A stretch of DNA of 64,000 nt from Candidatus Spongiisociaceae bacterium (GCA_965219685.1 CBDCOH010000002.1:4064001-4128000), one strand, 5' to 3'; numbered from the stretch's first letter, positions 19,765-54,625 are shown. Notes: a model not told the origin generated them from the letters alone. Numbers and translations are program-made.

Positions 19765-21096
19765 TCAGAAGAGTTCCGCGAGGTCGTTGGCGTTGCTGAT
19801 CGAGGTGAGGTTGTAGAGGGCTTCCAGGAGTACTGCCGCGCGGTCATGGCGGATTGCAGGATCGGTGAGCCGGTGGAACTTTTCATCGAGCATGGCCTTT
19901 GGCATGGGTCGGCCGGGGCTTCCCAGGACTTCGTACATCAGTGCCGTCTTCGTATAGGTCCGGCCTCCCACCCGCAGTTCGACGGTGTTGGGAACCTCGT
20001 GGAAGCGACGGGCGGCGAACACCTTTGAACCTTCCGGATCCTCCACGATCTCGATGCGGCGGGCCATCTCACGCGCCACCGGGTCGGCGAACTGGTCCTC
20101 CGTGAACCACTCGTGCCCGGGTTCGACTCCGAGTATGCCGAGCGCCGTTCCCCACTGGACGCTGTAGATCCCCTCCCAGAAACTCCGAGGCGCCGGATCG
20201 TACTGGTGGGGGCGTAGATAGATGTCCGGCAGGTGGACCGTGACCTGGTCGATGTCCTCGACGGAGAGGCCGTGTTCGTCCATCAGTTCGAGGCTCAGTT
20301 GGATTCCTCCCTGCGACAGCCGACTCGATGGCCACGGCTTCAACTGGATCTCGCCGGCGGTGTAGCCGAAGGGTCCCGGCGAGGTTGCCATCGAGTCGAT
20401 GTCGTACTCCTTCGTGCGCCGCTCCAACTCGTCCGGCATCTCTCCGTAGCCGATCGAGGCGAGCAGCGCGGCCTGGATACCGTCGTGGCAGAGGAACAGG
20501 TTGCCCATCCCAACATGGCTGATCCGCTTGGGCTCGGGAGGGTTGAGCAACTGGGACTGGCGAACCGGGTATCCCCAGCACAGTCCCATGGCGAGGTTGG
20601 TGGTCTCGGCGTCCAGGCCGAGCAGGCGGCATGTGGCCATCGCCAGGCACAGGTTTATGTGGCGCTGGATGTCGCCGTCGTAGCGGGCGTAGTGGAATCG
20701 GCCGTTGATCTCGTAGGTCACGCAGGCGGTTGCAAGCATCTCAGCCCCGGTAGCTCCCACCCTTTGGCCGATCGCGAGGATCGTGTGCACGAGTGAGGGG
20801 CCGATGTGGATGCCGGGCCCGGTCTCCTCGAAGTCGAGGGACCGCGCCAGCTGTGCGTTGATCCCCGCCGCCAGCTGGCTGGAAGTCCGAAAGCCACCCC
20901 CGAGTACGACCGCTTCGGGCGTGCCGCCCACGTCGTGGGCATACGCGATGAACTCCTGACCCGATACAGGCAGGCCGCCGTAGGTGGTTCCGACCGTGTC
21001 TATGAACAGCCGTTGCATCCGTTCCCGAGCCTGCGCCGGTATGTCCGCGAGGTCCGCGCCGAGCAACTCCTCGACCAGTCGGTTGGTTATGCCCAT
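19765..21096 (-). CDS. MmgE/PrpD family protein, divergent DFEETGPG clade
   Basis: AAGINAQLARSLDFEETGPGIH, LKPWPS, GSPGRPM..EKF. Start MGITNRL. Confidence 0.85.
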   Translation of the reverse strand: MGITNRLVEELLGADLADIPAQARERMQRLFIDTVGTTYGGLPVSGQEFIAYAHDVGGTPEAVVLGGGFRTSSQLAAGINAQLARSLDFEETGPGIHIGPSLVHTILAIGQRVGATGAEMLATACVTYEINGRFHYARYDGDIQRHINLCLAMATCRLLGLDAETTNLAMGLCWGYPVRQSQLLNPPEPKRISHVGMGNLFLCHDGIQAALLASIGYGEMPDELERRTKEYDIDSMATSPGPFGYTAGEIQLKPWPSSRLSQGGIQLSLELMDEHGLSVEDIDQVTVHLPDIYLRPHQYDPAPRSFWEGIYSVQWGTALGILGVEPGHEWFTEDQFADPVAREMARRIEIVEDPEGSKVFAARRFHEVPNTVELRVGGRTYTKTALMYEVLGSPGRPMPKAMLDEKFHRLTDPAIRHDRAAVLLEALYNLTSISNANDLAELF

Positions 21097-21167
21097 GGAT
21101 GCGACTCCCTGCCGTCTAGCTGCGACCATACCGCAACACGTATCCGGCGGTTCGATCGCTACCAGAG

Positions 21168-21420
21168 GAGTAGTTCCAAGGGATCTGACCAGAAACGACC
21201 GCACTCTGATCGCTGCACAACTCTGTACAACGCATCTGTAACTCGTATATCCCCGTTCTTGGACTCGGACTCCGGAGCTGCCATTTCGCGAAGAGCCATC
21301 CGCGGGTGCAAGCGCGTGATCCAAACAGTGCTAGGAGGATGGTAAATTATCCCAGGTAACGTTACCCTCTGCTTGCCAACTAGAGACTATAGACTACCGA
21401 CTAGGAACTAATCATCTAGG
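21168..21420. repeat. unannotated ~253-nt dispersed intergenic element, copy 1
   Basis: Collinear similarity to 29413..29666 over its full length. Imperfect terminal inverted repeat tagttccaag...ctaggaacta. Confidence 0.85.
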
Positions 21421-21460
21421 TTGCTTACCCGTAGCGGCTATGGGGTTGGAGGGCCTGGTC

Positions 21461-22822
21461 ATGGCGTCGTACGAGCTTCTGGTCAAGAACGGCATTCTCG
21501 TGGGATCACGAGCGGACCCGCGGAGAGCCGATCTGGCCGCCGACCGAGGCCGGATCGTGGCAATCGAGGAGCCGGGAAGGTTGGGTCCCGGTGTCCGGAC
21601 GATCGACGCCGACGGCCTCTACGTGATGCCGGGCGCCATCGATCCCCATGTGCATCTGGGTATGGGGGGTGGTTTCGGGTCGTTCCAGGCCGACACGGGG
21701 GCCGCGACGATCGGCGGTGTGTCCAGCCTGTTCACGATACTGATCGACAGCGGCCCGTACGATCCGGTGATCGCCGAGCACAGCGAGGTTCTCGACCGGG
21801 TCAGCCATGTGGACTTCGGGTTCCACGTGACACTGATGACCGACGACCACGTGGACGCACTGGCCGGACTGGCTGAGCGGTGGGGTGTCAACTCATACAA
21901 GTACTTCATGAGCTTCCGGGGTGACGAGGGAGCATATCTGGGGATCGATGGCACCGACGACGGCGCCTTCCATAATATCCTCTCCGGCGTCGCGGCGGTG
22001 GGCGGGACCCTCCAGATACACCCTGAGAACATCGAGGTCGTGTGGCGCCTCCGTGACAAGGTGAGGGCATCGGGCCGGGATGATCTCCGCGCCTGGGACG
22101 AGAGCCGGCCTGATTTCGTTGAGGCCGAGAGCATCTGGAGGGCGTCCTTCTTCGCCGAACTCGTGGGGACCAGGGTCTACTTCGTCCACCTGAGTTCCGG
22201 CTACGCTCTGGCCGCCGTTCGAGGCGCGCGGGCAGCTTTTCCGGGGGCCACCCTGTTCGCCGAGACCTGTCCTCACTACCTCACCCACACCCACGACTCG
22301 GAACTCGGTGTGGTGGGAAAGATCAACCCGCCCCTTCGGAGCGACGACGACGTGAGCGCGGTATGGGACGCCGTTGGGGATGGAACCATGGACACCGTCG
22401 GATCTGATCATGTGGGCAGGCGTCTGGAAGTGAAGCGAGGATCGATCTGGACCGCTTCCGCAGGCTTCCCGGGTCTGCCGACGGTGCTACCGGTGCTGCT
22501 ATCGGAGGGCCATCACCGTCGTGGACTCCCGCTGCCCGAGATAGCGCGCCTGGCGTCCGGGCGCGCGGCGGAGATCTTCGGCTGCGCCGACCGGAAGGGG
22601 GACCTGCGGGTCGGGATGGACGCCGACCTCGCCATCGTCGACCTCGACTGGACCAGGGAGGTCAGTTCCTCCATGCTGGGTACCTGGTCCGACTACAGCA
22701 TCTACGACGGCTGGTCTCTCACCGGTTGGCCGAGGTACACCGTGGTAAGGGGCGAAGTGGTTCAAGAAAACGGCGACCTGGTCGGCCCCCCGGGCTGGGG
22801 GCAGCACATTCGGCGGGGGTGA
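21461..22822 (+). CDS. cyclic amidohydrolase (dihydropyrimidinase/allantoinase/imidase family)
   Basis: MPGAIDPHVH, SYKYFM, IHPEN, VHLS, ETCPHYL, KINPPLR, GSDH. Confidence 0.92.
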   Translation: MASYELLVKNGILVGSRADPRRADLAADRGRIVAIEEPGRLGPGVRTIDADGLYVMPGAIDPHVHLGMGGGFGSFQADTGAATIGGVSSLFTILIDSGPYDPVIAEHSEVLDRVSHVDFGFHVTLMTDDHVDALAGLAERWGVNSYKYFMSFRGDEGAYLGIDGTDDGAFHNILSGVAAVGGTLQIHPENIEVVWRLRDKVRASGRDDLRAWDESRPDFVEAESIWRASFFAELVGTRVYFVHLSSGYALAAVRGARAAFPGATLFAETCPHYLTHTHDSELGVVGKINPPLRSDDDVSAVWDAVGDGTMDTVGSDHVGRRLEVKRGSIWTASAGFPGLPTVLPVLLSEGHHRRGLPLPEIARLASGRAAEIFGCADRKGDLRVGMDADLAIVDLDWTREVSSSMLGTWSDYSIYDGWSLTGWPRYTVVRGEVVQENGDLVGPPGWGQHIRRG

Positions 22823-22824
22823 GG

Positions 22825-23135: not shown

Positions 23136-23825
23136 CTACCCGCCGAGAGATCGCAGGTAGGCGATGACGTCGTTGACGGGTACCACGTCGGCGTACTTTG
23201 CATCCATGTCGAAAAGGCTGATGTCGTGGCTGATCCGGATGCGGTCGAACACGCACTCCTCGACGACGATCGTGTGGAAGTTGTAGGAGAATGCGTCGGC
23301 AACCGTGGCGCGAACACAGCCGCCGGTGGTGGCGCCGGTGACCAGAAGCGTGTCGGCCCTGAAGTCGACCAGATAGCTGGCCAGGGCGGTTCCGAAGAAA
23401 GCGCTGGCGTGCCGTTTCGGGAGCAACACGTCGCCTTCCTGCGGGGCGATCTCCTCGATGAACTGGTATCCGCGTTCGGGGATGGTGGTGATGAGGGGGT
23501 TGATCTGGCCGAACCGCCCCGCGTCGACGGCTCGCTTGGGGGCGACGTACGGATAGATGATCGGCGCTCCGGCAGCCCGGGCAGCCTCCAGCAGCCGGGC
23601 TACGTGGCCGACCGCCTCCCATGCCTGCGCGCCGCAGGCGGTGGGGTACATGGTGGTGATCGCCTCCTCGATCGGGGCAGGATGGTCCCCGGCGGTCCGG
23701 TACTGCAGGTCGATGACGAGCACAGCCGGCCGCTCCCCGAACCCGACCCGGTTGGCGAAACCGGCCAACCGGTACACACCCCGATCTGCCTCGGGTACCG
23801 AGGCCATCCATGCAGGGTCGCTCAT
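23136..23825 (-). CDS. isochorismatase family amidase (maleamate amidohydrolase/N-carbamoylsarcosine amidase-like)
   Basis: GFGERPAVLVID, KRHASAFFGT, GATTGGCVRATVAD, FDMDAKYADV. Confidence 0.88.
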   Translation of the reverse strand: MSDPAWMASVPEADRGVYRLAGFANRVGFGERPAVLVIDLQYRTAGDHPAPIEEAITTMYPTACGAQAWEAVGHVARLLEAARAAGAPIIYPYVAPKRAVDAGRFGQINPLITTIPERGYQFIEEIAPQEGDVLLPKRHASAFFGTALASYLVDFRADTLLVTGATTGGCVRATVADAFSYNFHTIVVEECVFDRIRISHDISLFDMDAKYADVVPVNDVIAYLRSLGG

Positions 23826-24748
23826 ACCGTCCCTCCCCGTTCCGTCCGGATTTCGTCGGCCAGGGAGTCGAACTCATCCAGCATCACCAACTCCTGGCGT
23901 TCCTCCCAGGAGAGCATACGGTCCTCGATGGCCGGGTCGGCCTCGTCGGCTGCCAGCAATGCCAGCGCTTCGCGGGCCGCAGTGACCATGGTGCGGAGCA
24001 GAAGGCTGGCTCGCAGAATGATGCTGAAGCCGAGTTCCTCGAGCCGGGCGGTGGGCAGCAGAGGCGTCTTCCCGCCCTCCACCAGGTTCGCCACCAGAGG
24101 GACACCCGGAAACGCTGATCCCACCACGGCCAACTCGGCCTCCGACCGGGGCGCCTCCACGAACAGGGCGTCGGCGCCTGCCGCCAGATATGCCTCGGCA
24201 CGGGAGATGGCCTCGGCGAGGCCCACGACGTTGCGAGCGTCGGTTCGAGCGATGAGCATCAGATCGGGACTCGATCGAGCCCGGGTGGCAGCCTCGATCT
24301 TCTCTGCCATCTCGGTCGGGGTCACCAGCCGCTGGCCTTCGAAGTGCCCGCACCGTTTTGGATCCTGCTGATCCTCGATCTGGACCGCCGCCGCCCCGGC
24401 TCGCTCCAACTGGTACACGGATCTCATCACCGATAGGGGACCGCCGAACCCGGTGTCGGCGTCGACGATGAGGGGCAGGCGGCTGGCTTCCCGGATCCTC
24501 CCCACATGGTCGATCAGTTCGGTCCGGCTGACCAGCCCTACGTCCGGGAGTCCGAAGACGGAGTTGGCGAGTCCCGCGCCGGTGACATACGCCGCAGGGA
24601 AGCCGGCCTGCTCCACCATCCGGGCGCCGAGAGCATCGGTGACGCCCGGCACTACGATGCTTCCGCCGGTGAGGATCCGGCGGAGGGTGCGGGACGACAA
24701 TGCGGAGGCGGCACCCCCGAGCCCTGGCGGGATTTCCTTATCTGGCAT
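23822..24748 (-). CDS. isocitrate lyase/PEP mutase family C-C lyase (PrpB/2,3-dimethylmalate lyase-like)
   Basis: GLPDVGL, VDADTGFG, QIEDQ..PKRCGH, IARTDA. Start codon uncertain. Confidence 0.88.
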   Translation of the reverse strand: MPDKEIPPGLGGAASALSSRTLRRILTGGSIVVPGVTDALGARMVEQAGFPAAYVTGAGLANSVFGLPDVGLVSRTELIDHVGRIREASRLPLIVDADTGFGGPLSVMRSVYQLERAGAAAVQIEDQQDPKRCGHFEGQRLVTPTEMAEKIEAATRARSSPDLMLIARTDARNVVGLAEAISRAEAYLAAGADALFVEAPRSEAELAVVGSAFPGVPLVANLVEGGKTPLLPTARLEELGFSIILRASLLLRTMVTAAREALALLAADEADPAIEDRMLSWEERQELVMLDEFDSLADEIRTERGGTV

Positions 24749-24830
24749 CCTGGTGGAACTTAGCGCCGCCTGACCGTCACGGTCGTCTCGAAGGCTATAG
24801 GCTTCGAGACACGTACAGAGGGAGGAATCC

Positions 24831-25634
24831 GTGTCCGTGGTGACGAACGTCAGCCCCCGCGAGCACATCGAGTTCGTACGGGAACGGGACGTGGCTTGGA
24901 CGAGTTTCGATCCGCACGGCGCACCATCCGGGCGCCGGGTCAAGTATCTGACCAGGGGAGTCGACAGTGCTGCCTTCAGCGGTCTCGTACGTCTCCCGGC
25001 CGGGTACCAGGCACCGTTCGGCGCCCACGAACGGCAGACCGAACTCTTCGTGCTGGATGGGGAACTCGGTGTGGGCGACGCGGGCTGCGGTCCCAACACC
25101 TACCTGTTCGTTCCCGCAGGGGTCGGGTATGGCCCGGTCGTTGCGCGTGAGGAGACCACGATCCTGGCCCACTACGAAGGATCGGCCGATCTGGTCGAGC
25201 CCTCGAGCGGCGCCGAGCCTACGATCATCGACACCGATTCATGGGAGTGGACCTGGGGAGCCGGGGTGGGGCTGCCGAAGGGCCTGTGCCACAAGACCGT
25301 GCGCTACGACGAGACGACCGGGGAGCGCACCTTCCTGCTGGGGGTGGTTCCGTGGTGGGACTCGCCCCTCCTAGAGTTCCACCCGTGTGTCGAGGAGTGT
25401 TACGTCATCCAGGGCGACATGTTCATGGACAACGTGGCCGAACTCGGCGCCATGGGTCCTGGCGACTACTTCTGGCGCGATCCCTGGGTCAGTCATGGCC
25501 CGATGCGGACCAGGGAGGGGTTCATCGCCCTACTGCGACATGACCGTCACCATGTGAACTACTTCATCGATCGGACCGGTACCAGCCCCGAGGAAAACAT
25601 GGCCCTCGTGGAGAGCGGCCACTTCGACGAGTAA
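24831..25634 (+). CDS. bicupin protein (DUF4437/ChrR-like)
   Basis: REHIEF, H...ELFVLDG, EFHPCVEECYVIQG, PGDYFWR.P...HGP. Confidence 0.72.
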   Translation: MSVVTNVSPREHIEFVRERDVAWTSFDPHGAPSGRRVKYLTRGVDSAAFSGLVRLPAGYQAPFGAHERQTELFVLDGELGVGDAGCGPNTYLFVPAGVGYGPVVAREETTILAHYEGSADLVEPSSGAEPTIIDTDSWEWTWGAGVGLPKGLCHKTVRYDETTGERTFLLGVVPWWDSPLLEFHPCVEECYVIQGDMFMDNVAELGAMGPGDYFWRDPWVSHGPMRTREGFIALLRHDRHHVNYFIDRTGTSPEENMALVESGHFDE

Positions 25635-26315: not shown

Positions 26316-26318
26316 GCC

Positions 26319-27350
26319 TTGGTGAGCAGTAGCGGGGTTCGGGGCGCGGCCGGCACAACGGGGTCCAGAGGGTCTGCCGAGCCGGTACTGCGCGTCGAAG
26401 GTCTCAACACGACGTTCAGAACCCACGACGGCCCGGTGCCCGCGGTCCGTGACGTCTCCTTCGAACTCCGCAAGGGCGAGTTCCTGGGCCTGGTCGGGGA
26501 GTCCGGGTGCGGGAAGTCCACCGTGCTGATGTCGATACTGCGATTGCTCCCGGAGAACGCCGATATGAGCGCCCGGTCGCTGGTGTTCGAGGATCGCGAC
26601 ATGCTCGGTCTGTCGGACGAGGGGATCCGGCTGTTGAGGGGTCGCCGGATCAGCTTGATCCCCCAGCGACCGATGAGTTCGTTGAGTCCCGTCGCCACCA
26701 TCGAGAGGCAGCTCAAGTGGTACCTCCAGCGGGACGGAGCGAGGAGACCCGAAGAGTTGACCGGAGCTATGGAGTCGATGCTCGACCGGGTGGGACTGCG
26801 AGCGGCGGTCGAGCGCCTCTCCGGATACCCGTACCAGTTCTCCGGAGGCCAGTTGCAGCGGATGCTCATCGCCATCGCCGCGCTGGTCGGTGAGCCGGAC
26901 GTACTGATGGCCGATGAGCCCACCACCACACTGGATGTGACGGTTCAGGCGCAGGTGCTGAGCCTCCTTCTGGAAGCGAGGGACAGGCTGGGGCTGTCGG
27001 TGATCATCGTCACTCACGACCTGGGTGTGATCGCCCAGACCTGTGACCGGGTGGCGGTCATGTACGGCGGGAGGCTGGTGGAGATGGCCGATGTGAACAC
27101 GCTGTTCCACGAGCCGCGCCATCCCTACACCATCGCCTTGCTGGATTCGCTGCCCAGCCGGCACCGGCGAGGGGAGCCGTTGACCTCGATCGAGGGAAGC
27201 GCCATCGGTTCCAACCTCCTCGACGGGTGCCCCTTCGCCCCACGGTGCCCCAGCGTCATGGATAACTGCCATACCGACGTGCCGGAGGAGCGAACCGTCG
27301 GGGAGACCTTCGTACGCTGCCATCTCTACTCGGGTGCGGATCATGGCTGA
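26319..27350 (+). CDS. peptide/nickel ABC transporter ATP-binding subunit (OppD/DppD-like)
   Basis: GESGCGKS, FSGGQLQR, ADEPTT, HPYT, Cys-rich C-terminus. Confidence 0.93.
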   Translation: MVSSSGVRGAAGTTGSRGSAEPVLRVEGLNTTFRTHDGPVPAVRDVSFELRKGEFLGLVGESGCGKSTVLMSILRLLPENADMSARSLVFEDRDMLGLSDEGIRLLRGRRISLIPQRPMSSLSPVATIERQLKWYLQRDGARRPEELTGAMESMLDRVGLRAAVERLSGYPYQFSGGQLQRMLIAIAALVGEPDVLMADEPTTTLDVTVQAQVLSLLLEARDRLGLSVIIVTHDLGVIAQTCDRVAVMYGGRLVEMADVNTLFHEPRHPYTIALLDSLPSRHRRGEPLTSIEGSAIGSNLLDGCPFAPRCPSVMDNCHTDVPEERTVGETFVRCHLYSGADHG

Positions 27351-28320
27351 AGTCCCGAGGTTGGAGGTACGCGATCTCGTGAAGCACTTCCCGGTACGGC
27401 GGGGTACGTTCGCCAAGGCCCGGGAGTTCGTCAAGGCCGTGAACGGCGTCTCCCTGGACATCCGCGACGGCGAGACCGTGGCCATCGTCGGCGAGTCGGG
27501 CTGCGGCAAGTCGACCATCGCCCGGTTGATCCTCCGGCTGGAGCGTCCCACATCGGGGAGCATCCGCCTCGACGGCGAGGACCTGCTCGCGATGGAGGAC
27601 ACGACCGCGGCTCGCCGAGCGGTCCAACTCGTGTCGCAGAACCCCTGGTCGGCGTTGAACCGCCGCAAGACCATCAAGCACACTCTCACCCAGCCGCTCA
27701 AGGTCCACAACCTGGTGGATACCCGGGCTGGTCGGACTGTGCGGGCAGCGCAGCTACTGGAGGAGGTCGGCCTGTCACCGGAATACCTCTACCGGTTCCC
27801 GAGCGGGATCAGCGGAGGTGAGTTGCAGAGGGTCACCATCGCCAGGGCATTGGCGGTCTCGCCCGGGGTGCTCATCCTCGACGAGCCGACCGCCAGCCTC
27901 GACGTGAGCGTGAAGGCCAGCATCATCAACCTGCTGATCGACCTCCGGGATCTGGAGAAGCTGACCTACCTCTTCATCACCCACGAGATCGACATCGCCA
28001 AGCACGTGAGCGACCGGATCGCGGTCATGTACCTCGGACGGATCGTCGAACAGGGCCCCACCGAGGAGATATTCGAGAACCCGCAACATCCCTACACGCA
28101 ATCACTGCTCGGGTCGGTACCTGTCCCGGATCCCCAACTGCGGGCCGAGCTGAAGCCCATCTCCGGGGAAGTTCCATCCGCTATCGACCTACCCTCCGGA
28201 TGTACCTTCCACACGCGTTGCCCCTACGTCTTCGACCGCTGCCCGGAGGAGATCCCCGAACTGTCGATGGTCGATTCCCTGCATCTGGCCGCCTGCCACC
28301 TGATGGAGCAGGGCAGGTAG
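27343..28320 (+). CDS. peptide/nickel ABC transporter ATP-binding subunit (OppF/DppF-like)
   Basis: GESGCGKS, ISGGELQR, LDEPT, HPYT, GC.FHTRCP. Confidence 0.93.
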   Translation: MAEVPRLEVRDLVKHFPVRRGTFAKAREFVKAVNGVSLDIRDGETVAIVGESGCGKSTIARLILRLERPTSGSIRLDGEDLLAMEDTTAARRAVQLVSQNPWSALNRRKTIKHTLTQPLKVHNLVDTRAGRTVRAAQLLEEVGLSPEYLYRFPSGISGGELQRVTIARALAVSPGVLILDEPTASLDVSVKASIINLLIDLRDLEKLTYLFITHEIDIAKHVSDRIAVMYLGRIVEQGPTEEIFENPQHPYTQSLLGSVPVPDPQLRAELKPISGEVPSAIDLPSGCTFHTRCPYVFDRCPEEIPELSMVDSLHLAACHLMEQGR

Positions 28321-31495: not shown

Positions 31496-31837
31496 TTACT
31501 GGATGTTGAGGATCAGCCCCAGTCTGTCCCGTATCAGGGCCAGAGTGACTGACCCTACGTTGCCTCGTACCCTGCTGATGCGCGCGATCGATATCGCTCG
31601 TATGTGTTGGGCTTGGGCGACACAGGGCCTCTCCACTCCGTTGTGACGATCCGGTTCGACTTCGATCTCGGACTTGAACCCTCGGTTGGTACTGGTCAAT
31701 GGCACGATGTGGACGATCGTGGGTCCTCGCTTGAGTATGTCCTGAGCCGTTACGACAACCGCTGGATGGCGGAAGCCGGCCTCTCTCGCGACAGGTATGC
31801 CCAAGTCGAGATCAACCACGTCACCGGAAGTCAGCAT
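31496..31837 (-). CDS. mazF: type II toxin, PemK/MazF family
   Basis: GDVV..DLG.P..REAG..HPAVVV, VPLTS, IRAIS..R. Confidence 0.85.
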   Translation of the reverse strand: MLTSGDVVDLDLGIPVAREAGFRHPAVVVTAQDILKRGPTIVHIVPLTSTNRGFKSEIEVEPDRHNGVERPCVAQAQHIRAISIARISRVRGNVGSVTLALIRDRLGLILNIQ

Positions 31838-39723: not shown

Positions 39724-39975
39724 GTGACCTTCATCATCACCGAGGCTTGTATCGACGAGAAGGACGCCTCGTGTGTCGACGTCTGTCCCGTGGACTGCAT
39801 CCACGAGGGTGACGACCAGTTTTACATCGACCCCATCGAGTGCGTCGACTGCTACGCCTGCGTGCCCGTGTGCCCCGTCAAGGCGATCTATCCCGAGGAC
39901 GAGGTCCCGGAGCGCGACGCCGCGTACATCGACAAGAACTACCTGTACTTCGACGTTTCGCCGCCACATCGCTGA
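39724..39975 (+). CDS. fdxA: ferredoxin (7Fe/8Fe FdxA-like)
   Basis: ACIDEKDASCVDVCPVDCI...YIDP.ECVDC.AC.PVCPV.AI. Confidence 0.9.
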   Translation: MTFIITEACIDEKDASCVDVCPVDCIHEGDDQFYIDPIECVDCYACVPVCPVKAIYPEDEVPERDAAYIDKNYLYFDVSPPHR

Positions 39976-44350: not shown

Positions 44351-44584
44351 ATGCCTACGATTACGATTCGCAACGTCCCCACCCAGACCCGCAACGAACT
44401 CGCTGCGAGGGCCGCTCTCGCCGGGAGGTCCCTGCAGGAGCATCTCCGCTTGGCGCTGATTGCTCTTGCCGACCGCCCCGAACCGGAGGTCCTCATGGCT
44501 GCGGTACGGCGGCGCAAGCAGGGGGCCGCCGGTTCCCTTACCACCGAGGACATTCTCAAGTTCCGTGATGAAGGGCGCCGGTGA
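44351..44584 (+). CDS. vapB: FitA-like RHH antitoxin
   Basis: MPTITIRNVP......L..RAA..GRSL. TAAAAT lies 7 nt before the ATG. Confidence 0.82.
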   Translation: MPTITIRNVPTQTRNELAARAALAGRSLQEHLRLALIALADRPEPEVLMAAVRRRKQGAAGSLTTEDILKFRDEGRR

Positions 44585-44979
44585 CGCTGGTCGTCGACGC
44601 CTCGGTCGTGGTCGCCGGTCTCGCGGGAGGGGGTGCTGACGGTTCCTGGGCCGAGGAAGTGCTGGTCACCGACGATCTGGCGGCGCCGCATCTGATGCCC
44701 GTTGAGGCAGCCCATGTTCTGCGGCGCGCTGTCCTCTCGAGCCGCCTCTCCGCGGATGTCGCCTCGTTGGCCCACCAGGATCTCCTGGCACTGCGTGTGG
44801 CCCTGTTCGACTACGTTCCGGTGGCCCACCGGGTTTGGGAACTCCGATCGAACGTCACAGCCTACGATGCCTGGTATGTCGCTCTCGCCGAGATGCTCGG
44901 CGCGCCGCTCGCCACTCTGGATAAGCGTCTGGCCGAGGCGACGGGCCCCCGCTGTCCGTTCCTGACGCCGTCCACGTGA
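44581..44979 (+). CDS. vapC: VapC PIN-domain toxin
   Basis: VVDAS, AP.L...E, YDA.YVALAE, TLD.RL. Confidence 0.9.
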   Translation: MTLVVDASVVVAGLAGGGADGSWAEEVLVTDDLAAPHLMPVEAAHVLRRAVLSSRLSADVASLAHQDLLALRVALFDYVPVAHRVWELRSNVTAYDAWYVALAEMLGAPLATLDKRLAEATGPRCPFLTPST

Positions 44980-47046: not shown

Positions 47047-48015
47047 CTACCTGCGTCGCGTGCTCAGATAGAGTTCGCGGATCTTCGGGTTGAAGTAGGC
47101 GTAGAGGATGTCGACCGCGAAATTCAGCACTAGGAAGAACACCGCGGTGAACAGGGTGGCGCCCACCGCCACCGGGATGTCCTGCTTGCGGAAGGAGTCC
47201 ACCATTAGCTGGCCCACGCCCGGGATGGTGAACACGGTCTCCACGATCACCGATCCGCTGACCAGGAACCCGACGAGCAGCCCGATCACGGTGGTGGTCG
47301 GGATGATCGCGTTGGGCAGGGCCACCCGGCCCACCACCCGCCGCTCCTGCAAGCCCATCGATCGGGCGAATGTGACGTAATCGCGCTGGAGAGTGTCGAG
47401 CATCGAGGCCCGCAGCGTCTTGGTCACGATGGCGATCGTTGCCAGACCGAGCACGAACGAGGGCAGGATCAGATGCGCCAGATTCTGTCCCGGGTCCTCC
47501 GAGAAGTGAATCCAGCCGCCCGCAGGCAGGACATCTGTGATGTACAGACCGAACACCATCAGCAGGAGCAGGCCCAGCCAGAAGTTCGGGATCGAGATGG
47601 CGACCACCGAGACCACCCGGATGAGGCCGTCGAGGAATCCTCCGTACCTGGCCGCGGCGACAAGTCCCAGCACCATCGCCACCAGGGTCGCCACGATGCC
47701 CGTGGAGAGGGCCAGTTGCAGGGTCGGGATCGCCCGGTCGGCGATGAGCTCGGTAACGGGTGTGAGGCTCAGGTTGGACTGGCCCAGATCACCCTGCAGG
47801 ACATTCACCAGGTAGCGCCAGTACTGGACGAGCAGCGGCTGGTCAAGACCCAACCTCGCCATGACCTCGGCGCGTTGCTCAGGAGTGGCGTCCGTACCGG
47901 TGAAGAGCAACACGATGTTGCCCGGAGTCAACTGGATGAACATGAACACCAGCGTCAGGACGGCCCAGAACACGATGACCGTTGCGACCAAGCGACGAAC
48001 GACGTAGCTCCGCAA
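47047..48015 (-). CDS. peptide ABC transporter permease (OppB/DppB-like)
   Basis: LGLDQPL.VQY..Y, SIPNFWLG, DYV.FARS.GL, ETVF..PG.G. Confidence 0.92.
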   Translation of the reverse strand: MRSYVVRRLVATVIVFWAVLTLVFMFIQLTPGNIVLLFTGTDATPEQRAEVMARLGLDQPLLVQYWRYLVNVLQGDLGQSNLSLTPVTELIADRAIPTLQLALSTGIVATLVAMVLGLVAAARYGGFLDGLIRVVSVVAISIPNFWLGLLLLMVFGLYITDVLPAGGWIHFSEDPGQNLAHLILPSFVLGLATIAIVTKTLRASMLDTLQRDYVTFARSMGLQERRVVGRVALPNAIIPTTTVIGLLVGFLVSGSVIVETVFTIPGVGQLMVDSFRKQDIPVAVGATLFTAVFFLVLNFAVDILYAYFNPKIRELYLSTRRR

Positions 48016-48157: not shown

Positions 48158-49924
48158 ATGGCACGGAGCACGCCCGAGGGTGCAGGGATCGTGGAGCCGG
48201 ACGACGGCCGGAAGCTGATCACCCGGCGTCGATTCATAACGATGTCGGCGGTCGCCGCAGCCGGAGGTGTGCTGGCCGCCTGCGGTCAGGACGCCGAAGA
48301 GGTGGCTACCACCCCGGCGGCGACATCCCCACCGGCGACGACGGCCGCGACGACCGCGACCACGGAAGCCATGGCGGATGAGGCGGCGCCGGCCACAACC
48401 GAGGCACCGCTGACCACCACCGTCGCCACGACCGCCCCGACGACGACGCAACCGGCTCAGGTCGGAGGTGTTGTCGTGGTCGATCAGGCCACAGAGCCGC
48501 CTGCCCTGAACCCGTGGCAGTTCAACTTCCAGTACGTGATCTGGATGTCCGATCTGGTCGAGGAGCCCCTCTACCGGTACGACGATGACCTCAAGATCAT
48601 CCCCTGGCTGGCCTCCGAACTGCCCGCCGCAAGTGACGACGGACTCACCTGGGACATCCCCATCAGGGAGGGCATCCAGTTCCACAACGGCGACACGCTG
48701 ACCGCCCACCATGTGGTCGACCTGTTCGCCAAGGGCGCCGAGTCGGGCATCTGGAGGAGCCGCTTCGCGTTCGGAATTGACAGCACCGAGGCCCTTGAGG
48801 ACAACCTGCTGCGGGTCAACTTCAGCAAGCCGTTCTCGATCTTCCTGGACAAGCTGGCCCTCATGGCGATACGGCATCCCGACAACTTCGAGGCGACGGA
48901 CAAGTTCCTCGGAACCGGTCCCTTCGTCCATACGGCTTACGACCAGGGTTCCTCGGCGACCTTCGCCCGGAACGACAACTACTGGGGCACCCAGCCGTCG
49001 ATCGAGGGCGTCGAGTTCCGGTTCGTGGCGGACAACGGCGCCCGACTGGTGAACCTGATTCGGGCCGATTCCACCGTCTACCCGGAAACGGAACCGAATT
49101 CCGTGCCGCTGCTGGAAGCGGAGCCGGACATCACGGTCCTGAACCAGCAGTCCCCCTTCGAGATCTTGTGGTGGAACAACGTCGGGCGGGAGCCGTTCAG
49201 CGACAAGCGCATCGTGGAGGCCATGGCCCGTTCCATGGACCGCCAGGCTGTGAACGACATCGTGTTCGGTGGGTTGGGAACCATCGCCCAGGGCATGCTC
49301 GGACCGGCCACCGGCGGTTACGACCCGAACTTCAAGCCCTTCACCGACACCGCCGACCTGGCGACGGCCAGGGCGCTCATGTCGGAGGCCACCAACCTGG
49401 TGTTCGATGAGGACGGGAACATCGCCGAGGGAGACCCGGTCGAGTTCGACGTGATGTTCATCAACTCGCCGACGGTGCGCGATCTTGGAGCAGTGCTGCA
49501 GCAGCAGTGGTTGGCGGTGGGCCTTCGAGCCAACCTCGCCTTCCTGGAGATCGCAGCCTGGGTAGCCAGGTTCTTCGATTCCGACTACGACATCGGGGTC
49601 AGCGTGTCGACCGACGGGCCCTCGCAGGGAGCCACCGCGTGGAGTTCGCTGGGGACGGCTCGGTCGGATCACTTCTTCAACACGATGATGTACTACAACG
49701 ACGAGTACACGCAGCTCATCAGCGACTCGTTCGGCGAGCCGGACGACGCGACCCGGTTCGCCATGTGGAGGCGCGCCAACGAGATCCTGACCCTGGACTT
49801 CGTGATGACGCCGCCGGTGTACCCGCCGTTCGTCGTGTCGACACATGCCAGCCTGCAGGGCAACCTGCTCGGCCCGATGCGGACCAACCGTCTCGCGCTC
49901 GAGAACACCAGTTTCGTCGCCTGA
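48158..49924 (+). CDS. family 5 ABC substrate-binding lipoprotein (Tat signal)
   Basis: TRRRF, LAACG lipobox, Thr/Ala linker, DGLTW...IREG..FHNG, GTGPF, N.NYWG. Confidence 0.92.
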   Translation: MARSTPEGAGIVEPDDGRKLITRRRFITMSAVAAAGGVLAACGQDAEEVATTPAATSPPATTAATTATTEAMADEAAPATTEAPLTTTVATTAPTTTQPAQVGGVVVVDQATEPPALNPWQFNFQYVIWMSDLVEEPLYRYDDDLKIIPWLASELPAASDDGLTWDIPIREGIQFHNGDTLTAHHVVDLFAKGAESGIWRSRFAFGIDSTEALEDNLLRVNFSKPFSIFLDKLALMAIRHPDNFEATDKFLGTGPFVHTAYDQGSSATFARNDNYWGTQPSIEGVEFRFVADNGARLVNLIRADSTVYPETEPNSVPLLEAEPDITVLNQQSPFEILWWNNVGREPFSDKRIVEAMARSMDRQAVNDIVFGGLGTIAQGMLGPATGGYDPNFKPFTDTADLATARALMSEATNLVFDEDGNIAEGDPVEFDVMFINSPTVRDLGAVLQQQWLAVGLRANLAFLEIAAWVARFFDSDYDIGVSVSTDGPSQGATAWSSLGTARSDHFFNTMMYYNDEYTQLISDSFGEPDDATRFAMWRRANEILTLDFVMTPPVYPPFVVSTHASLQGNLLGPMRTNRLALENTSFVA

Positions 49925-49956: not shown

Positions 49957-51303
49957 GTGACGGTCACGGCGGCGCTCGTTCGCGAGGTCATCGACACGTC
50001 CTTCCGGGAGATTCCCCGAGCCGCTGTCGACCGGATAAGGCGCCTCATCGTCGACTCCGTCGCCAACTGCTTCATGGGCTACGAGGTGACCGGTCGGCAG
50101 TTGGCGGCATACGCGGCGGAACTCGGCGGACCTGAGGAAGCCGTGCTTGTAGCGGACGGCCGCCGGGTTCCGGCGGAGGTGGCGGCTGCTGTAAACGCGC
50201 AGGTCGCTCGGGATACCGACTTCGAGGAGACCGGTCCCGGTCTTCATGCCGGACCGGCCATGGTCCACACCGCTCTGGCCGTCGGCCAGCGCGTAGGCGC
50301 CTCCGGCGCCGACGTGGTGGCCGCCGCAACCATCGGGTACGAGGTGAACGCTCGCTTCCATCACGCGAGGCGCGACGGTGACATCATCCGCCACCACGCC
50401 ACCTGCGTCGCCATCGTGGCCGGCAAGCTCCTGGGTCTGGGCGGAGAGGCGCTGAATCGGGCCATCGGATTCTCCTGGGAACTACCTACGAGCGACATCC
50501 TCCGCTACTGGCCTCCTCAGGCCAAGCGGGTGAGCCGCCTGGGGATCGGGAATCTCTGGGTTTGCCGCTTGGGCGTGCAAGCTGCTCTGCTGGCCAGTCA
50601 CGGTTACGGGGGCCTGCCCGACGAACTCGACTTCCAGGCTGCGGATTACGACCTCCAAGGGATAGCCGCACCGACCGGGTTCGCTCACACCGCCAACGAA
50701 CTGGAACTCAAGCCCTACCCGGCCAGCCGGGGCTGCAACGGGGCTCTCGACCTGGTCGGCCGGATCGTCCGGCGGGAGTCTCTGCGGATCGACGAGATCG
50801 AGCGCATTACGGCCCGGCTGCCGAGTATCTACCTGGATGCCCACCAGTTCGAACCCGAGCCCGAGAACTACTGGGAGGCGATCTACAGCACGCATTGGGG
50901 CATCACCATGCAGGCGATGCAGGTGCCCCCAGGTCGGCAGTGGTTCACACCCGAACGCCTGGGCGACGCTCGTTCGAGGGGGCTATGCGCCAAGGTCGAG
51001 ATCGTCGAGGATCCGGAGGCTACGCGGGCTCGTGACGAGAAGCGTCGTGGGGAGATGGCGAACACGGTGGAGATCGAGGCCAGGGGACAGGTGTTCACCG
51101 AGTCGATACTGATGCGCGACGTGCCCGGAAGCGCGCGTATGCCGATGACCGAGGATGTGTTCAGGGGAAAGTTCCTGTCGCTCGCCGAACCCGGCATCGG
51201 CTCCGCCCAAGCCGCCACGTTGTACGACGCTCTCTCCGAAGTCGAAGCGCTTCCGGACGTGAGGTCGCTCGCACCCATTATGGCTCCACCGGTTCGGGGG
51301 TAA
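49957..51303 (+). CDS. MmgE/PrpD family protein, divergent DFEETGPG clade
   Basis: NAQVARDTDFEETGPGLH, GYEV, LKPYP, GS...PM...KF. Confidence 0.86.
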   Translation: MTVTAALVREVIDTSFREIPRAAVDRIRRLIVDSVANCFMGYEVTGRQLAAYAAELGGPEEAVLVADGRRVPAEVAAAVNAQVARDTDFEETGPGLHAGPAMVHTALAVGQRVGASGADVVAAATIGYEVNARFHHARRDGDIIRHHATCVAIVAGKLLGLGGEALNRAIGFSWELPTSDILRYWPPQAKRVSRLGIGNLWVCRLGVQAALLASHGYGGLPDELDFQAADYDLQGIAAPTGFAHTANELELKPYPASRGCNGALDLVGRIVRRESLRIDEIERITARLPSIYLDAHQFEPEPENYWEAIYSTHWGITMQAMQVPPGRQWFTPERLGDARSRGLCAKVEIVEDPEATRARDEKRRGEMANTVEIEARGQVFTESILMRDVPGSARMPMTEDVFRGKFLSLAEPGIGSAQAATLYDALSEVEALPDVRSLAPIMAPPVRG

Positions 51304-51347
51304 CATCGGGCCAACGCGATCGGGTGCCGGAGCGTAGGGAGGGAATC

Positions 51348-52190
51348 ATGGAGCCGGTGATGCTTACCGATGTCTCCGGGATGGACTGGACCGCCCAGAT
51401 GTTCGGTGGGCGATCGAAGCGGCTCTTCGAAGGAGCCGACGGGAGCCATCTCGACTACGTCGACTTCTCGGGCAACGCCGCCTGGGACCGCAACGATCCG
51501 GGAAAAGGTCCCCACTACCACACCTACCACGAGTGGGCCTACTGCCTGTCGGGCCATTTCGTCATCTACGAGTTCGTCCATCCACGCCAGATCGAGGGTG
51601 AACTGGTCCACTTTCGCGAGGGAACCTTCATGAGCAGGCCGGCCTACAGCCTGCACGCAGGGCAGGGCTACCCGCGTTCGGCGTTCCGCCAGGGACCGTG
51701 TGTCCTGCTCAACTACGAGGAGGGTCCGTCGGAGGTGCTGCTGGCCGGACCGGACAACGTTCCTGACGATGTGGTCGACTGGCCCGATAACTTCATTCGT
51801 CAGAGCGCCACGACCCTCGAGTGGGAGGTTGATCCGGAGCTCGGGGGCGCCAGCATGAAGTGGCTCCGTGAGGATCCGATCGGTGGGTTCCGGGCCAAAC
51901 TACGCCACGTGCCGCCCGGATGGGTGGCACCCGCAGAGATGCGGGCCACCTACCACGAACGGGCACACCGCTTCGCCTACGTGATCGCGGGAGACATGAC
52001 GTTGCTGGCAGGGGATGGTGGTACCGCGGTCGGGCCCGACTGGTTCATCGAACAGCCGCCGGGAACAGTGTGGGCCTGGCAGAGCGGCTCGGCGTCCGAG
52101 ACAGGGTGCATGTGGCTCGAAGCGACCTACGCATCCGGCACGACATTGAGCAACGGCGGGGTGGAGGACCCGATCGCGGCCGGGAACTGA
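51348..52190 (+). CDS. cupin-like hypothetical protein
   Basis: HYHTYHEWAY.L.G...RP..S.H putative metal-binding cupin motifs and a degenerate second cupin. Confidence 0.65.
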   Translation: MEPVMLTDVSGMDWTAQMFGGRSKRLFEGADGSHLDYVDFSGNAAWDRNDPGKGPHYHTYHEWAYCLSGHFVIYEFVHPRQIEGELVHFREGTFMSRPAYSLHAGQGYPRSAFRQGPCVLLNYEEGPSEVLLAGPDNVPDDVVDWPDNFIRQSATTLEWEVDPELGGASMKWLREDPIGGFRAKLRHVPPGWVAPAEMRATYHERAHRFAYVIAGDMTLLAGDGGTAVGPDWFIEQPPGTVWAWQSGSASETGCMWLEATYASGTTLSNGGVEDPIAAGN

Positions 52191-52203
52191 GGCCGGCCCG
52201 CTC

Positions 52204-53142
52204 CTACTGGCGGAGTTGGGGGTCGAGGAGGTCGTTCAGCCCGTCGCCCACGAGGTTGAAGCCGACCGTGGCGACCAAGAGCACCATTCCGGGGAACAGG
52301 GAATACCACCAGGCCCCCAGAAGCATGAAGGCGGTGGCGTCGAACAGGATGTTGCCGATGGTGGGAGCAGGGGGCTGGATGCCCAATCCGAGGAAGCTGA
52401 GAGCCGCTTCGGCGAAGATGGCTATCGCGATCCAGAGGAATGCCTGGACGAGCACGGGTGGCGCGACGTTGACGATGACCTCCCGGAACAGGATCCGGCG
52501 GCGGGGCACGCCCACCACCCTCAGGGCATCTACGTAGTCCTCGTGAACCTCCACCAGGGTGGCGGCCCGGGCAACTCGAGCGAAGAACGGGGTGGCGGCA
52601 AGGGCGATGAGCATCACCACCTTCCAGGCGCCAGGGATCTGGATGGGTCCGACCTGGGTGGGTCCGATCCCGGTGAGGCCTAGAACGAACATTCCCAAGA
52701 CGAACAGGGGCAATGCCAGGATGACGTCGACGGCGCGCATGATCACCTCGTCGATCATGGTGCCCCCGCGGTACCCGGCCAGCATCCCCGCCGGCACCGC
52801 GATGATCAGGCCCAGCAGTACGCTCATCACTGCCACAAGGAGGGAGATGCGGGCCCCGTCGGCCGATCGGGCCAGCATGTCCCGTCCCAGATGATCCGTC
52901 CCGAAGAGGCTCTCCCCGCTCGGTGAGCCCAGGCGATCGGTCGACAGTTCGAGAGGGTCGCCCGTGAGGATCGGTCCGAAGATGGAGAAAAGTAGGTAGA
53001 TCAAGACCAGGACGGCGCCTGCCCTGGTCGCCCAGTTGTGGTTGATCATGCTGGTGAAGCTGCGCAGGGCGCGCAGTACGGGCGATGTAGCCTGAGCCGG
53101 GCCGGGGAGCGGCGCCGGATCCCGTTGTACGGCTGAAGTCAC
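52204..53142 (-). CDS. peptide ABC transporter permease (OppC/DppC-like)
   Basis: FGTDHLGRD, DYVDA.R..G, EAALSFLGLG, FNL.GDGL.D.LDP. Confidence 0.92.
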   Translation of the reverse strand: MTSAVQRDPAPLPGPAQATSPVLRALRSFTSMINHNWATRAGAVLVLIYLLFSIFGPILTGDPLELSTDRLGSPSGESLFGTDHLGRDMLARSADGARISLLVAVMSVLLGLIIAVPAGMLAGYRGGTMIDEVIMRAVDVILALPLFVLGMFVLGLTGIGPTQVGPIQIPGAWKVVMLIALAATPFFARVARAATLVEVHEDYVDALRVVGVPRRRILFREVIVNVAPPVLVQAFLWIAIAIFAEAALSFLGLGIQPPAPTIGNILFDATAFMLLGAWWYSLFPGMVLLVATVGFNLVGDGLNDLLDPQLRQ

Positions 53143-53281
53143 GCTGACACCTCGGCTTGACTGCTGGAATCAGGTTAGGGGAGAGCATAAGCGGCCGCCA
53201 TCGCCGATGGGCCGCGCCAACCCGCCCGATAGCCGACGGCCCGCCCGCAGTCCCTATAGGCTCCGACTACCGACTACTCCC

Positions 53282-54625
53282 ATGACCATTACCCAACGCC
53301 TGGCAGAAGAAGTCGCCCGATCCGAGTACGACGACCTCCCCGTGGAGGCAGTCTCGATCGTCAAACAGGCTCTGATGGACGACATCGGAGTGGCGATGCT
53401 CGCCCACGAGTACCTAGACCAGCCTCTGGTGCGGTTCGCCCGCGCGATCGGCGGGAATACGGAGGCGACCCTGGTGGGCGACGGATCCCTTGTCTCGGCC
53501 GGGCTGGCGGCCGGCGTCAACGCGGAGATGGCCTCCCACTCCGACTTCGAGGAGTCGGGTCCCGGAGTTCATGCCTTCTCGCCGATCGGCCAGACAGCCG
53601 TGGCCATGGCCGAGCGGGAGGGGGCCTCGGGCCGCGACGTGATCGCCGCCATCGCGGTGAGCTACGAGATCAACGGCCGATTCGCTCGGAACCTCGCCGA
53701 CACGAGTCCCCTCATACACCTTTTCCCGGCCCACTTCCGGAGGCATCTGATCGTCAACCCGGCCCTGGCAGCTGCAAGGATGCTGCGCCTGGACGCAGAC
53801 GCCATCAACAGGGTGATCGGCCTCGCTTGGACGATGGTGCCGCCCGATATGAAACACATCTACCTGACCCCCCGGCTGGACTGGCCCAACAGCCAGCACA
53901 ATCTGTGGAGTTGCCAGATCGGCATCCAGTCGGCTCTGCTGGTCGCATCGGGTACCGGCGGTCCCCCCGACATTCTCGACCACGGAGCGGCTGACATCTA
54001 CTGCCTCAGCCGTCTCGGCGAGTCTCCCGCGCCCTTCCACTACCTGACGAACGAACTCAACTTCAAGCCCTGGATCGGCAGCTACGGCTTCATGGGAGGC
54101 ATGCAGATCGCCGGCCGCTTGGTGGCGGAACACCGGATCGATCCATCCGCGATCGACCATGTGACCTTCCGCGGCAGCGCTGTCTACAACGACCCGGACA
54201 GCGTTTTCGTCGATCCGGAGCCGGACACGGCCTGGAAGGCACTCGGATGTGTCCCGTGGGCCATCGCCAACGTCATCCTCGGCCACCCCGCCGGCCCGGA
54301 CTGGCTGGCGCCCGAGAGCCTGGCCGATCCGGAGCGCCGCGCCCTTACCCGCAGGGTGAGGCTCGAGACCTCCGAGAGTCCGTATGTCAACGAGGTGGAG
54401 ATTGCGGCCGCCGGTGAGGTCTACCAAGGCCGGATCCGGCGGGAAGACTATCTCGGCAGCCCGCGCAACCCGATGTCCTTGGAGCAGTTGGAAGCCAAGT
54501 TCGTGCGCAACGCTTCGGTGGTGGTCGGCGAGCCCAGGGCGAGAGAGATGGTCGATTTACTCAGCGCCCTGGAGGAGGTGGCCGACATTCGCGAGTTGAC
54601 TCGACTCTTCTCGAGTCAGTTCTGA
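53282..54625 (+). CDS. MmgE/PrpD family protein, divergent DFEESGPG clade
   Basis: NAEMASHSDFEESGPGVH, SYEI, FKPW, GSPRNPM...KF. Confidence 0.86.
   Translation: MTITQRLAEEVARSEYDDLPVEAVSIVKQALMDDIGVAMLAHEYLDQPLVRFARAIGGNTEATLVGDGSLVSAGLAAGVNAEMASHSDFEESGPGVHAFSPIGQTAVAMAEREGASGRDVIAAIAVSYEINGRFARNLADTSPLIHLFPAHFRRHLIVNPALAAARMLRLDADAINRVIGLAWTMVPPDMKHIYLTPRLDWPNSQHNLWSCQIGIQSALLVASGTGGPPDILDHGAADIYCLSRLGESPAPFHYLTNELNFKPWIGSYGFMGGMQIAGRLVAEHRIDPSAIDHVTFRGSAVYNDPDSVFVDPEPDTAWKALGCVPWAIANVILGHPAGPDWLAPESLADPERRALTRRVRLETSESPYVNEVEIAAAGEVYQGRIRREDYLGSPRNPMSLEQLEAKFVRNASVVVGEPRAREMVDLLSALEEVADIRELTRLFSSQF

Follow-up and report, generated by a model that had tools for sequence, protein, structure and literature searches.

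Introduction

To our knowledge, four reaction types are known in the MmgE/PrpD superfamily, those of 2-methylcitrate dehydratase (PrpD), cis-aconitate decarboxylase (CAD), IDS epimerase and methylsuccinate isomerase (Msi). We describe here a group of MmgE/PrpD genes in Candidatus Spongiisociaceae bacterium, three of which lie in a 64,000-nucleotide stretch of its genome (G000:C2:4064001-4128000, hereafter the window; G+C content about 65% throughout) and carry a contracted form of the active-site loop. We call them short-loop genes. According to PMC12290011, the superfamily has 50,344 homologues in GTDB, which are 'mostly uncharacterized'.

All characterised substrates of the superfamily share a C4 1,4-dicarboxylate, and a common enolate mechanism has been proposed (PMC12290011). 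IDS epimerase uses H85, D88, H99, H150, K198 and K266, with Tyr145 as the second base, and H85, D88 and H99 of these sit in the loop (PMC12290011). In human CAD (hCAD), the mutation-sensitive residues are Asp93, Thr97, His103, His159, Lys207, Lys272, His277 and Tyr318, the first three of which sit in the loop (PMC6789909). Msi (PA0881 and C. necator Q0K3E6) is the newest characterised member and shows that the family includes isomerases that act on free dicarboxylic acids through His, Lys and Tyr and need no cofactor (PMC12290011).

In this study, the short-loop genes were compared with these enzymes and with their relatives in other genomes. The account that we favour, at a probability of roughly 55% as a whole, is that they make up a small uncharacterised subfamily with an intact fold and a remodelled active site, which would apply the family's chemistry to other, imported substrates.

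A rare clade with a contracted active-site loop

The window contains five full-length MmgE/PrpD genes, all of which match PF03972 and PF19305 above the Pfam gathering scores. Gene 1 (19765..21096, minus strand, 443 aa), gene 2 (49957..51303, plus strand, 448 aa) and gene 3 (53282..54625, plus strand, 447 aa) carry DFEETGPGIH with IQRH, DFEETGPGLH with IRHH, and DFEESGPGVH with RRH, respectively; the translations read RSLDFEETGPGIHIGPS...DIQRHIN, RDTDFEETGPGLHAGPA...DIIRHHA and SHSDFEESGPGVHAFSP...AHFRRHLI. The other two genes are long-loop paralogues, which served as comparators. One lies at 9825..11159 (plus strand; start at 9765 or 9825; translation AEDYDDTHLATVVHPGAP, loop DYDDTHLATVVHP) and has DYDDTH...HP, and the other lies at 59902..61308 (plus strand; translation ALDFDDTHLPSVLHPSAS, loop DFDDTHLPSVLHP) and has DFDDTH...HP. 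The translations confirm a sequence-only reading of the stretch, which had set three genes with DFEE(T/S)GPGxH and an R-H pair against two that keep D(Y/F)DDTH...HP. Since the three short-loop genes are 35-42% identical over their full length, the shared motif reflects common descent rather than chance.

For gene 1, the listed open reading frame (ORF), 19765-21324, is over-long; an ATG at 21096 with GGGAG 8 nt upstream gives 443 aa, the length of the homologue P0020. For gene 3, the start at 53282, not that at 53207, agrees with homologues of 447 aa. The PF03972 N-domain scored 87-98 bits in the three short-loop genes against 178-207 bits in the two long-loop paralogues, and the C-domain (PF19305) of the short-loop genes scored 53-85 bits (cut-off 32.1 bits). 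NCBIfam holds no model for the three genes; of its PrpD equivalogs (TIGR02330, NF006943 and NF042438), whose cut-offs are 458-950, none scored above 38 bits.

A word-indexed search with the gene 2 protein as the query listed 120 clusters. Among them, P0006-P0082 scored from 997 down to 178 bits, and the next scored 116. In a MAFFT alignment, each loop-covering cluster above this score gap reads (T/S/G/C)-G-P-(G/A/S)-x-H, whereas the acidic part before it varies (DFEE, DYEE, DFED, GMEN, DFHE, NFEE, GFES and GLEN). DFEE, regarded at first sight as the core of the motif, was therefore dropped for the nearly invariant G-P-G-x-H, and the distinguishing feature of the clade is its contracted loop, (T/S)-G-P-G-x-H. 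When 1.84 billion representatives were searched with a profile, 15,240 proved to be family members at E <= 0.001. Among the best 150 of these, the short loop or a near variant of it (GSG, GAG, GYG or GPA) is seen in about 20, and about 7 further clade members are fragments without the loop region, about 27 in all; full-length rows with longer loops, such as DYDETSRNGH and DFDDTSITGHP, appear from rank 19 on.

A tree of 80 rows was built from 16 paralogues of this genome, 39 short-loop proteins from the searches and 25 long-loop representatives, with E. coli PrpD as the outgroup. It was obtained by an IQ-TREE 'quick' search with support from the Shimodaira-Hasegawa-like approximate likelihood ratio test (SH-aLRT) only. 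Several rows were flagged for long branches or odd composition, and a PrpD_N fragment and a 1027-aa double frame were left out. All 45 short-loop rows fall in a single clade, which has an SH-aLRT value of 100 and a stem length of 0.39. Genes 1 and 2 belong to its 32-row core (SH-aLRT 100), gene 3 belongs to a 5-row group (SH-aLRT 99) in the basal grade, and both long-loop window paralogues are in the other main cluster of the tree. The nearest tree rows of the three window genes (P0009, P0020 and P0126) are 80-83% identical to them. The short-loop genes are thus a real, rare and monophyletic subfamily of the MmgE/PrpD superfamily, as the idea of a distinct sub-clade required. No publication on this clade was found in the literature on MmgE/PrpD with SAR202, sponge symbionts or expanded paralogues.

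The genome has 18 PF03972 matches, and six have the short loop. In addition to the three window genes, short-loop copies lie at C2:4061237-4062616 (minus strand, DFEEQGPGVH, 1.4 kb left of the window), C2:4149547-4151076 (minus strand, DFEEGGPGLH) and C2:4151936-4153327 (plus strand, GMENTGPGLH). All six are therefore within 92 kb (C2:4061237-4153327); the chance that six randomly placed genes would all fall within 92 kb of 4.42 Mb is about 2e-8. They share 32-56% identity among themselves and 26-29% with the two long-loop paralogues, each has its own deep lineage in the tree, and they are kept alongside eleven other full-length family matches. A recent local triplication, as the sequence-only reading had it, is ruled out by this identity range, by the separate deep lineages and by the 80-83% identical counterparts that the three window genes have among cluster representatives; the six copies are old paralogues kept together rather than a recent local amplification. 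Other paralogues of the genome likewise have odd loops. Elsewhere in the genome, the 1027-aa open frame (C2:2421420-2424503, minus strand) has two separate PF03972 matches, with a third family gene divergent beside it; it may be either two PrpD-family units fused in tandem or two genes that share a frame.

Comparison with the closest known enzymes

The gene 2 protein was the only short-loop protein modelled. Its AlphaFold2 model, made with an 80-row alignment, has a pLDDT of 95.5 and a pTM of 0.95 and predicts that the two-domain PrpD fold is intact. Confident Foldseek matches of this model were family members only, at sequence identities of 16-20%. The template modelling (TM) scores were 0.85 for IDS epimerase (2HP0), 0.81-0.84 for human and mouse CAD (6R6U 0.84), 0.77-0.78 for B. 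subtilis IRG1 and 0.71-0.80 for MmgE/PrpD. The clade profile gave the same ranking: IDS epimerase and CAD scored 129-133 bits, whereas PrpD and MmgE scored 37-49 bits and aligned only after the loop, from profile position 118.

IDS epimerase of Agrobacterium tumefaciens BY6 (2HP0/2HP3) is the best match of the clade both by profile (133.5 bits, E 7.5e-38) and by structure (root-mean-square deviation 3.0). In the alignment, D88, the catalytic His99 and Lys266 of this enzyme correspond to D88, H97 and K252 of the clade, and Pro94 in its loop corresponds to P94. Unlike the clade, it has a loop two residues longer (DFDDSFPVMRGHP); its H85 is replaced by Arg in 47 of 69 clade rows, its two-base segment Tyr145...His150 falls in a deletion of the clade, and the identity is only 19%. 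The short-loop genes here have no known IDS-type context.

CAD (ACOD1/IRG1 of human and mouse; 6R6U, 6R6T and 7BR9) is almost as close, at 129-133 bits and a TM score of 0.84. Asp93, Thr97, His103 and Lys272 of hCAD have equivalents in the clade, Lys207 and His159 probably have them, and Tyr292 of the clade is within 1-4 residues of hCAD Tyr318. Unlike the clade, hCAD has a loop one residue longer (DFDDTWHPATHP) and His277, where the clade has Ser; the identity is 19-20%. CAD serves itaconate synthesis, whereas the short-loop genes are in a bacterial catabolic context with uptake systems.

PrpD/MmgE proteins (E. coli b0334, 1SZQ, 5MUX, 5MVI and 6S62) share the superfamily and the fold, but the loop of E. 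coli PrpD (DFNDTWLAAEWGHP) is four residues longer than that of the clade, and the profile alignment is confined to the region after it. For Msi, His88, Glu91 and His102 imply a spacing of 11 residues against 9 in the clade, as calculated from the residue numbers in PMC12290011 and not from an alignment. The same paper places Msi in an itaconate cluster (Ict, Ich, Ccl and Mcd); Pfam scans of the window ORFs found no such genes beside the three window genes.

Residues of the active site

Residues were mapped by HMMER against hCAD and IDS epimerase and by hhalign of 28 clade sequences against 24 long-loop relatives. Both methods pair D88 with Asp93/Asp88, T92 with Thr97, H97 with the catalytic His (His103/His99) and K252 with the Lys of the small domain (hCAD Lys272, IDS epimerase Lys266). 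The segment that the sequence-only reading found altered is accordingly the active-site loop, in which Asp93, Thr97 and His103 of hCAD (PMC6789909) and H85, D88 and H99 of IDS epimerase (PMC12290011) lie. The spacing from Asp to His is 9 in the clade, 10 in hCAD, 11 in IDS epimerase and in the long-loop paralogues of the window, and 13 in E. coli PrpD, so the solved enzymes whose loop was read exceed the clade in loop length by 1 to 4 residues. The DDT-(H/W/F) turn becomes (E/D)-E-T-G-P-G in the clade. The short-loop motif is in none of the characterised or solved loops read (hCAD, IDS epimerase and E. coli PrpD), and its frequent occurrence in characterised enzymes had been set beforehand as the observation that would speak against a separate class. 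DxDDTH...HP is not canonical either, since these three loops all differ from it.

Against the long-loop relatives, hhalign also placed a 2-residue deletion in the loop, a 5-residue insertion after K190 (the Lys207 equivalent), and a deletion of 7 residues beside which the usual R-G-(F/W)-H is reduced to R-H. The R-H pair noted from the sequence is present; because of this reduction, however, it is most simply explained as a contracted His159/His150 segment and not as a new motif. In the AlphaFold2 model, H146, which follows the conserved Arg, caps helix 147-159 (N-cap).

Conservation was counted in 69 clade rows and in 11 rows of the sister group. G93 and K252 are present in all 69 clade rows, H97 in 68, G95 in 67 and P94 in 66. 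Y231 (68/69) corresponds to Cys in 7 of the 11 sister rows, and Y292 (64/69) to Ile, Val or Leu in 8 of them. S257 (61/69), which is Cys in sister rows, occupies the position of hCAD His277. E90 (57/69), E91 (56/69) and R191 (57/69) are less strict. R85 (47/69) is His in the long-loop consensus and IDS epimerase and Asn in 9 of the 11 sister rows; at this position, that of the first carboxylate-binding His three before the loop Asp (IDS epimerase His85, Msi His88), only 3 of the 69 clade rows have His, and window genes 1 to 3 have R, R and S. D88 is present in all three window genes. The Lys at the Lys207-equivalent position is not conserved in the group of gene 3.

Of the eight sensitive residues of hCAD, D93, T97, H103 and K272 are thus matched in the clade, H277 is not, and the counterparts of H159, K207 and Y318 are probable or ambiguous by alignment. 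The active site appears from these alignments to be remodelled and not lost, with the catalytic His and the Lys272 equivalent near-invariant. The clade-specific Tyr231 and Tyr292 might serve as the second base.

Genomic context

As the sequence-only reading also noted, two of the three window genes lie beside ABC (ATP-binding cassette) transporter genes. An SBP_bac_5 solute-binding protein gene (48158..49924, plus strand), NikA/GsiB/DppA-like by Pfam and by PDB and NCBIfam matches that are all below equivalog cut-offs, ends 32 nt before gene 2, an order repeated in the loci L001 and L002. A cupin gene (51324..52190, plus strand) starts 20 nt downstream of gene 2. It has a weak Cupin_2 match, and its Atlas look-alikes are Cupin_7/DUF4437 clusters, so that it resembles ChrR-cupin/DUF4437 proteins; PDB and NCBIfam searches gave no match for it. 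A cupin follows the clade gene also in L001, L002 and L012. A DppC-like permease gene of Dpp type (52204..53142, minus strand, BPD_transp_1) is divergent from gene 3, and a DppB-like permease gene (47047..48015, minus strand, BPD_transp_1 and BPD_transp_1_N) precedes the binding-protein gene. Two Dpp-type ABC ATPase genes with an oligo_HPY C-terminus were identified by Pfam at 26319..28320 (plus strand). The Dpp-type transporter thus appears to be split, with some 20 kb between its ATPase genes and those for the binding protein and the permeases, and with the permease genes interleaved with PrpD-like and cupin genes, again in the same order in L001 and L002.

The divergent partner of gene 1 is a cyclic amidohydrolase gene of the hydantoinase/dihydropyrimidinase/allantoinase type (21440..22822, plus strand; PDB 1gkr, E 2e-62; NCBIfam matches below cut-off), and this pairing is repeated in L004 and L006. 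It is followed by genes for an isochorismatase-family amidase (23136..23825, minus strand; RutB/biuret-hydrolase-like by Pfam and NCBIfam), a PrpB-like lyase of the ICL/PEP-mutase family (23822..24760, start approximate, minus strand; PEP_mutase; TIGR02317 270 bits, cut-off 354) and a ChrR-cupin/DUF4437 protein (24831..25634, plus strand; Pfam). A nitroreductase gene is also near gene 1. On the right of the window, an O-methyltransferase gene lies between the two copies found there. It encodes a plant-type small-molecule enzyme (L021:2884-3978, minus strand; Methyltransf_2 and a dimerisation domain) between two divergent short-loop genes, an arrangement found also in two related loci of metagenome-assembled genomes (MAGs), L009 and L010; the group is bordered by a SIMPL protein and by a protein of about 240 aa that has no annotation.

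Other genomes were scanned with DFEETGPG and one other pattern, which misses variant motifs, in one genome per species for 185,579 species. The scan gave 18 loci from about 10 MAGs, two labelled 'bacterium', several Alphaproteobacteria, one Gammaproteobacteria, one Rhodospirillales and one Dehalococcoidia. The same patterns in 241 million metagenome records gave 17 loci, mostly in the same records as the MAG loci and with almost no new contexts. Partial matches of the stretch were seen in runs labelled sponge, coral and marine metagenomes. The context set consisted of 31 clade genes at 19 loci, namely the 18 scan loci and 115 kb of this genome; neighbours were clustered and named by Pfam, and two cupin clusters were merged after an Atlas look-alike search. 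Within 5 kb of the clade gene there is a component of an ABC or TRAP (tripartite ATP-independent periplasmic) transporter in 23 of 31 cases, a binding-protein gene in 17 (SBP_bac_5 in 13), a ChrR-type cupin in 17, a methyltransferase in 12 and another family paralogue in 17. In L003 and L007, a DctP gene is directly upstream of the clade gene.

Relatives were surveyed in 60 genomes at a threshold of E <= 1e-60 to the clade profile. The clade was found in three of them, all of the same genus, two with six matches each and one with five; it was not found in the other 4 same-genus, 21 other same-family and 32 same-order genomes searched. This presence in 3 of 60 relatives, together with the scattered occurrence in Proteobacteria and Dehalococcoidia, is consistent with a gene set that is accessory, transferable and dispensable. 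In the relative with five matches, three are interrupted by a stop in frame and a fourth is only a short piece, which suggests that the gene set is decaying there. In the region concerned (G002:C1:1310816-1349991), the stops in the short-loop copies are in-frame TGA or TAG codons, and copy fragments are also present.

Several other genes of the region were observed. Between the short-loop copies, Pfam found several VOC/glyoxalase, luciferase-like, alpha/beta-hydrolase and toxin-antitoxin genes among the window ORFs; dispersed across the island are a MazF/PemK toxin gene and two genes with a PIN domain (31496-31837, minus strand; 39291-39704, plus strand; 44581-44979, plus strand). Right of gene 3 are an HNH protein gene (54711-56069) and a MerR/DUF433 gene (56092-56793). 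Upstream of the first long-loop paralogue, an ORF of 270 aa (9016-9828, plus strand) overlaps the start of that gene (9765/9825-11159) and matches only positions 99-237 of the PrpD N-domain, without the Asp...His loop; it could be an N-domain-only partner or a remnant. The second long-loop paralogue (59902) ends a co-directional run (57924-61308, plus strand) with a family III CoA-transferase and a cyclase-family protein. The nearest models of the CoA-transferase are succinate-glutarate and succinyl-CoA:mesaconate transferases, all below cut-off, and the run recalls the CoA-transferase and MmgE/PrpD pairing of itaconate/methylsuccinate clusters. A four-gene Shango anti-phage system (366-8798, minus strand) was recognized by PADLOC models, with an SngC helicase (807 bits), an SngB ATPase (598 bits) and two tandem SngA TerB-domain proteins (225 and 237 bits). 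Side by side at 15054-19090 (minus strand) are two genes for aldehyde:ferredoxin oxidoreductase (AFOR). About 75 kb to their right, an SBP_bac_11 gene and a permease gene (L021:8736-11344) could import tungstate or molybdate, and a small 4Fe-4S ferredoxin gene (39724-39975) lies between them and the AFOR genes.

Discussion

The short-loop proteins are probably working enzymes for imported organic acids. They would carry out the common chemistry of the family, in which His mediates the transfer of a proton at C2 of a succinate-like (1,4-dicarboxylate) group via a Lys-stabilised enolate, on substrates other than those of PrpD, CAD, IDS epimerase and Msi, and each old paralogue probably takes its own related substrate. 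The gene context suggests that these substrates are solutes whose import would fall to Dpp-type ABC systems in this genome and to TRAP systems at two proteobacterial loci, and that they may be processed together with ChrR-type cupins in an accessory catabolic island. Like the sequence-only reading, we infer a distinct reaction or substrate class, and the retention of the catalytic His and Lys equivalents favours a new substrate over new chemistry. Because the clade is nearer to IDS epimerase and CAD, has no prpC/prpB operon and has two clade-specific tyrosines, we lean towards an isomerase/epimerase or a decarboxylase rather than PrpD-type dehydration.

Several points weigh against this account. 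The clade has no characterised member, and all the residue equivalences come from sequence alignment. D88 (54/69, otherwise G, N or E), K190 (52/69) and H146 (53/69, Gln in 16/69) are not universal in the clade. The partner of the large-domain Lys, Lys207, depends on the method, as hhalign pairs it (and IDS epimerase Lys198) with K190 and HMMER puts it opposite S193, and the pairing of H146 with the second substrate-binding His, His159/His150, hinges on where the 7-residue gap is placed. The second base of IDS epimerase, the Tyr five residues before His150, is without a counterpart in the contracted segment, and hCAD His277 has become Ser. As for the context, 8 of the 31 clade genes are without a transporter part within 5 kb. 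The counts are inflated by kinship, since the locus of this genome is syntenic with L001 and L002, L004 with L006, and L009 with L010; five context loci come from one alphaproteobacterial MAG. Counted per lineage, the binding-protein link is found in about 6 of 9 lineages and the cupin link in about 5 of 9.

The strongest competitor, which we nevertheless judge unlikely, is that the short-loop proteins are PrpD-type dehydratases or hydratases of substituted hydroxy-tricarboxylates in a route that resembles the methylcitrate cycle and ends in a PrpB-like lyase. The PrpB-like lyase gene only 2.7 kb from gene 1, which has a homologue in the syntenic locus L006, is equally compatible with a dehydratase role and so counts against our lean to an isomerase or decarboxylase. 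The namesake of the family is itself a dehydratase, and the mechanism described in PMC12290011 permits dehydration by the same residues. On the other hand, the lyase is below the cut-off of its own model, no prpC-like (citrate-synthase-type) gene was found in Pfam scans of the window ORFs, and the other five copies have no such lyase alongside among the annotated genes. PrpD and MmgE are moreover the most distant of the solved relatives, with at most 49 bits against 133 and TM scores of 0.71-0.80 against 0.84-0.85, and the PrpD equivalogs of NCBIfam stay far below their cut-offs.

It is less probable still that the loop difference is drift without functional meaning and that the proteins have no function other than that of the long-loop paralogues or of the known members. 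Loop length and sequence do vary widely in the family, both among the characterised enzymes and among the other paralogues of this genome. Drift is hard to reconcile, however, with the conservation of G-P-G-x-H in 66-69 of 69 rows from at least three phyla at 32-56% overall identity, with the long and fully supported stem of the clade, or with the coordinated changes elsewhere in the protein (the R-H contraction, the 5-residue insertion, Y231, Y292 and the change from Cys to Ser at 257). The upkeep of six copies beside eleven other full-length family matches in one genome also speaks against it. That the proteins are non-catalytic binding or regulatory derivatives of enzymes is very improbable, because the replacement of pocket residues (His by Arg at position -3, hCAD His277 by Ser) is outweighed by the retention of the catalytic His (68/69) and the Lys272 equivalent (69/69) and the Pfam scan found no DNA-binding or other added domains.

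A more specific and rather doubtful proposal is that the short-loop proteins represent a new functional class, either epimerases/isomerases that need no cofactor or decarboxylases, which would act on N- or C-substituted succinates; the six paralogues and the ChrR-type cupins would form a modular polycarboxylate toolkit. Candidate substrates would be opine- or aminopolycarboxylate-like N-(1,2-dicarboxyethyl) compounds, N-carbamoyl-aspartate-type ring-opening products of the adjacent hydantoinase, or aconitate-like ring-fission tricarboxylates. NikA/GsiB-like binding proteins might take them up, and the toolkit might act on host- or seawater-derived polycarboxylates.

These findings overturn nothing that is known, as loop variation is the rule in this family. 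Since the loop differs among all the characterised members, a new loop variant is to be expected in a superfamily that PMC12290011 describes as mostly uncharacterised. Nevertheless, a compact and well-delimited clade with a remodelled pocket is a good target in the search for a fifth substrate or reaction of the superfamily. Its catalytic residues are kept, there are several paralogues per genome, and a dedicated binding protein is at hand for ligand fishing. The short-loop subfamily could thereby clarify how marine and sponge-associated bacteria use unusual polycarboxylates.

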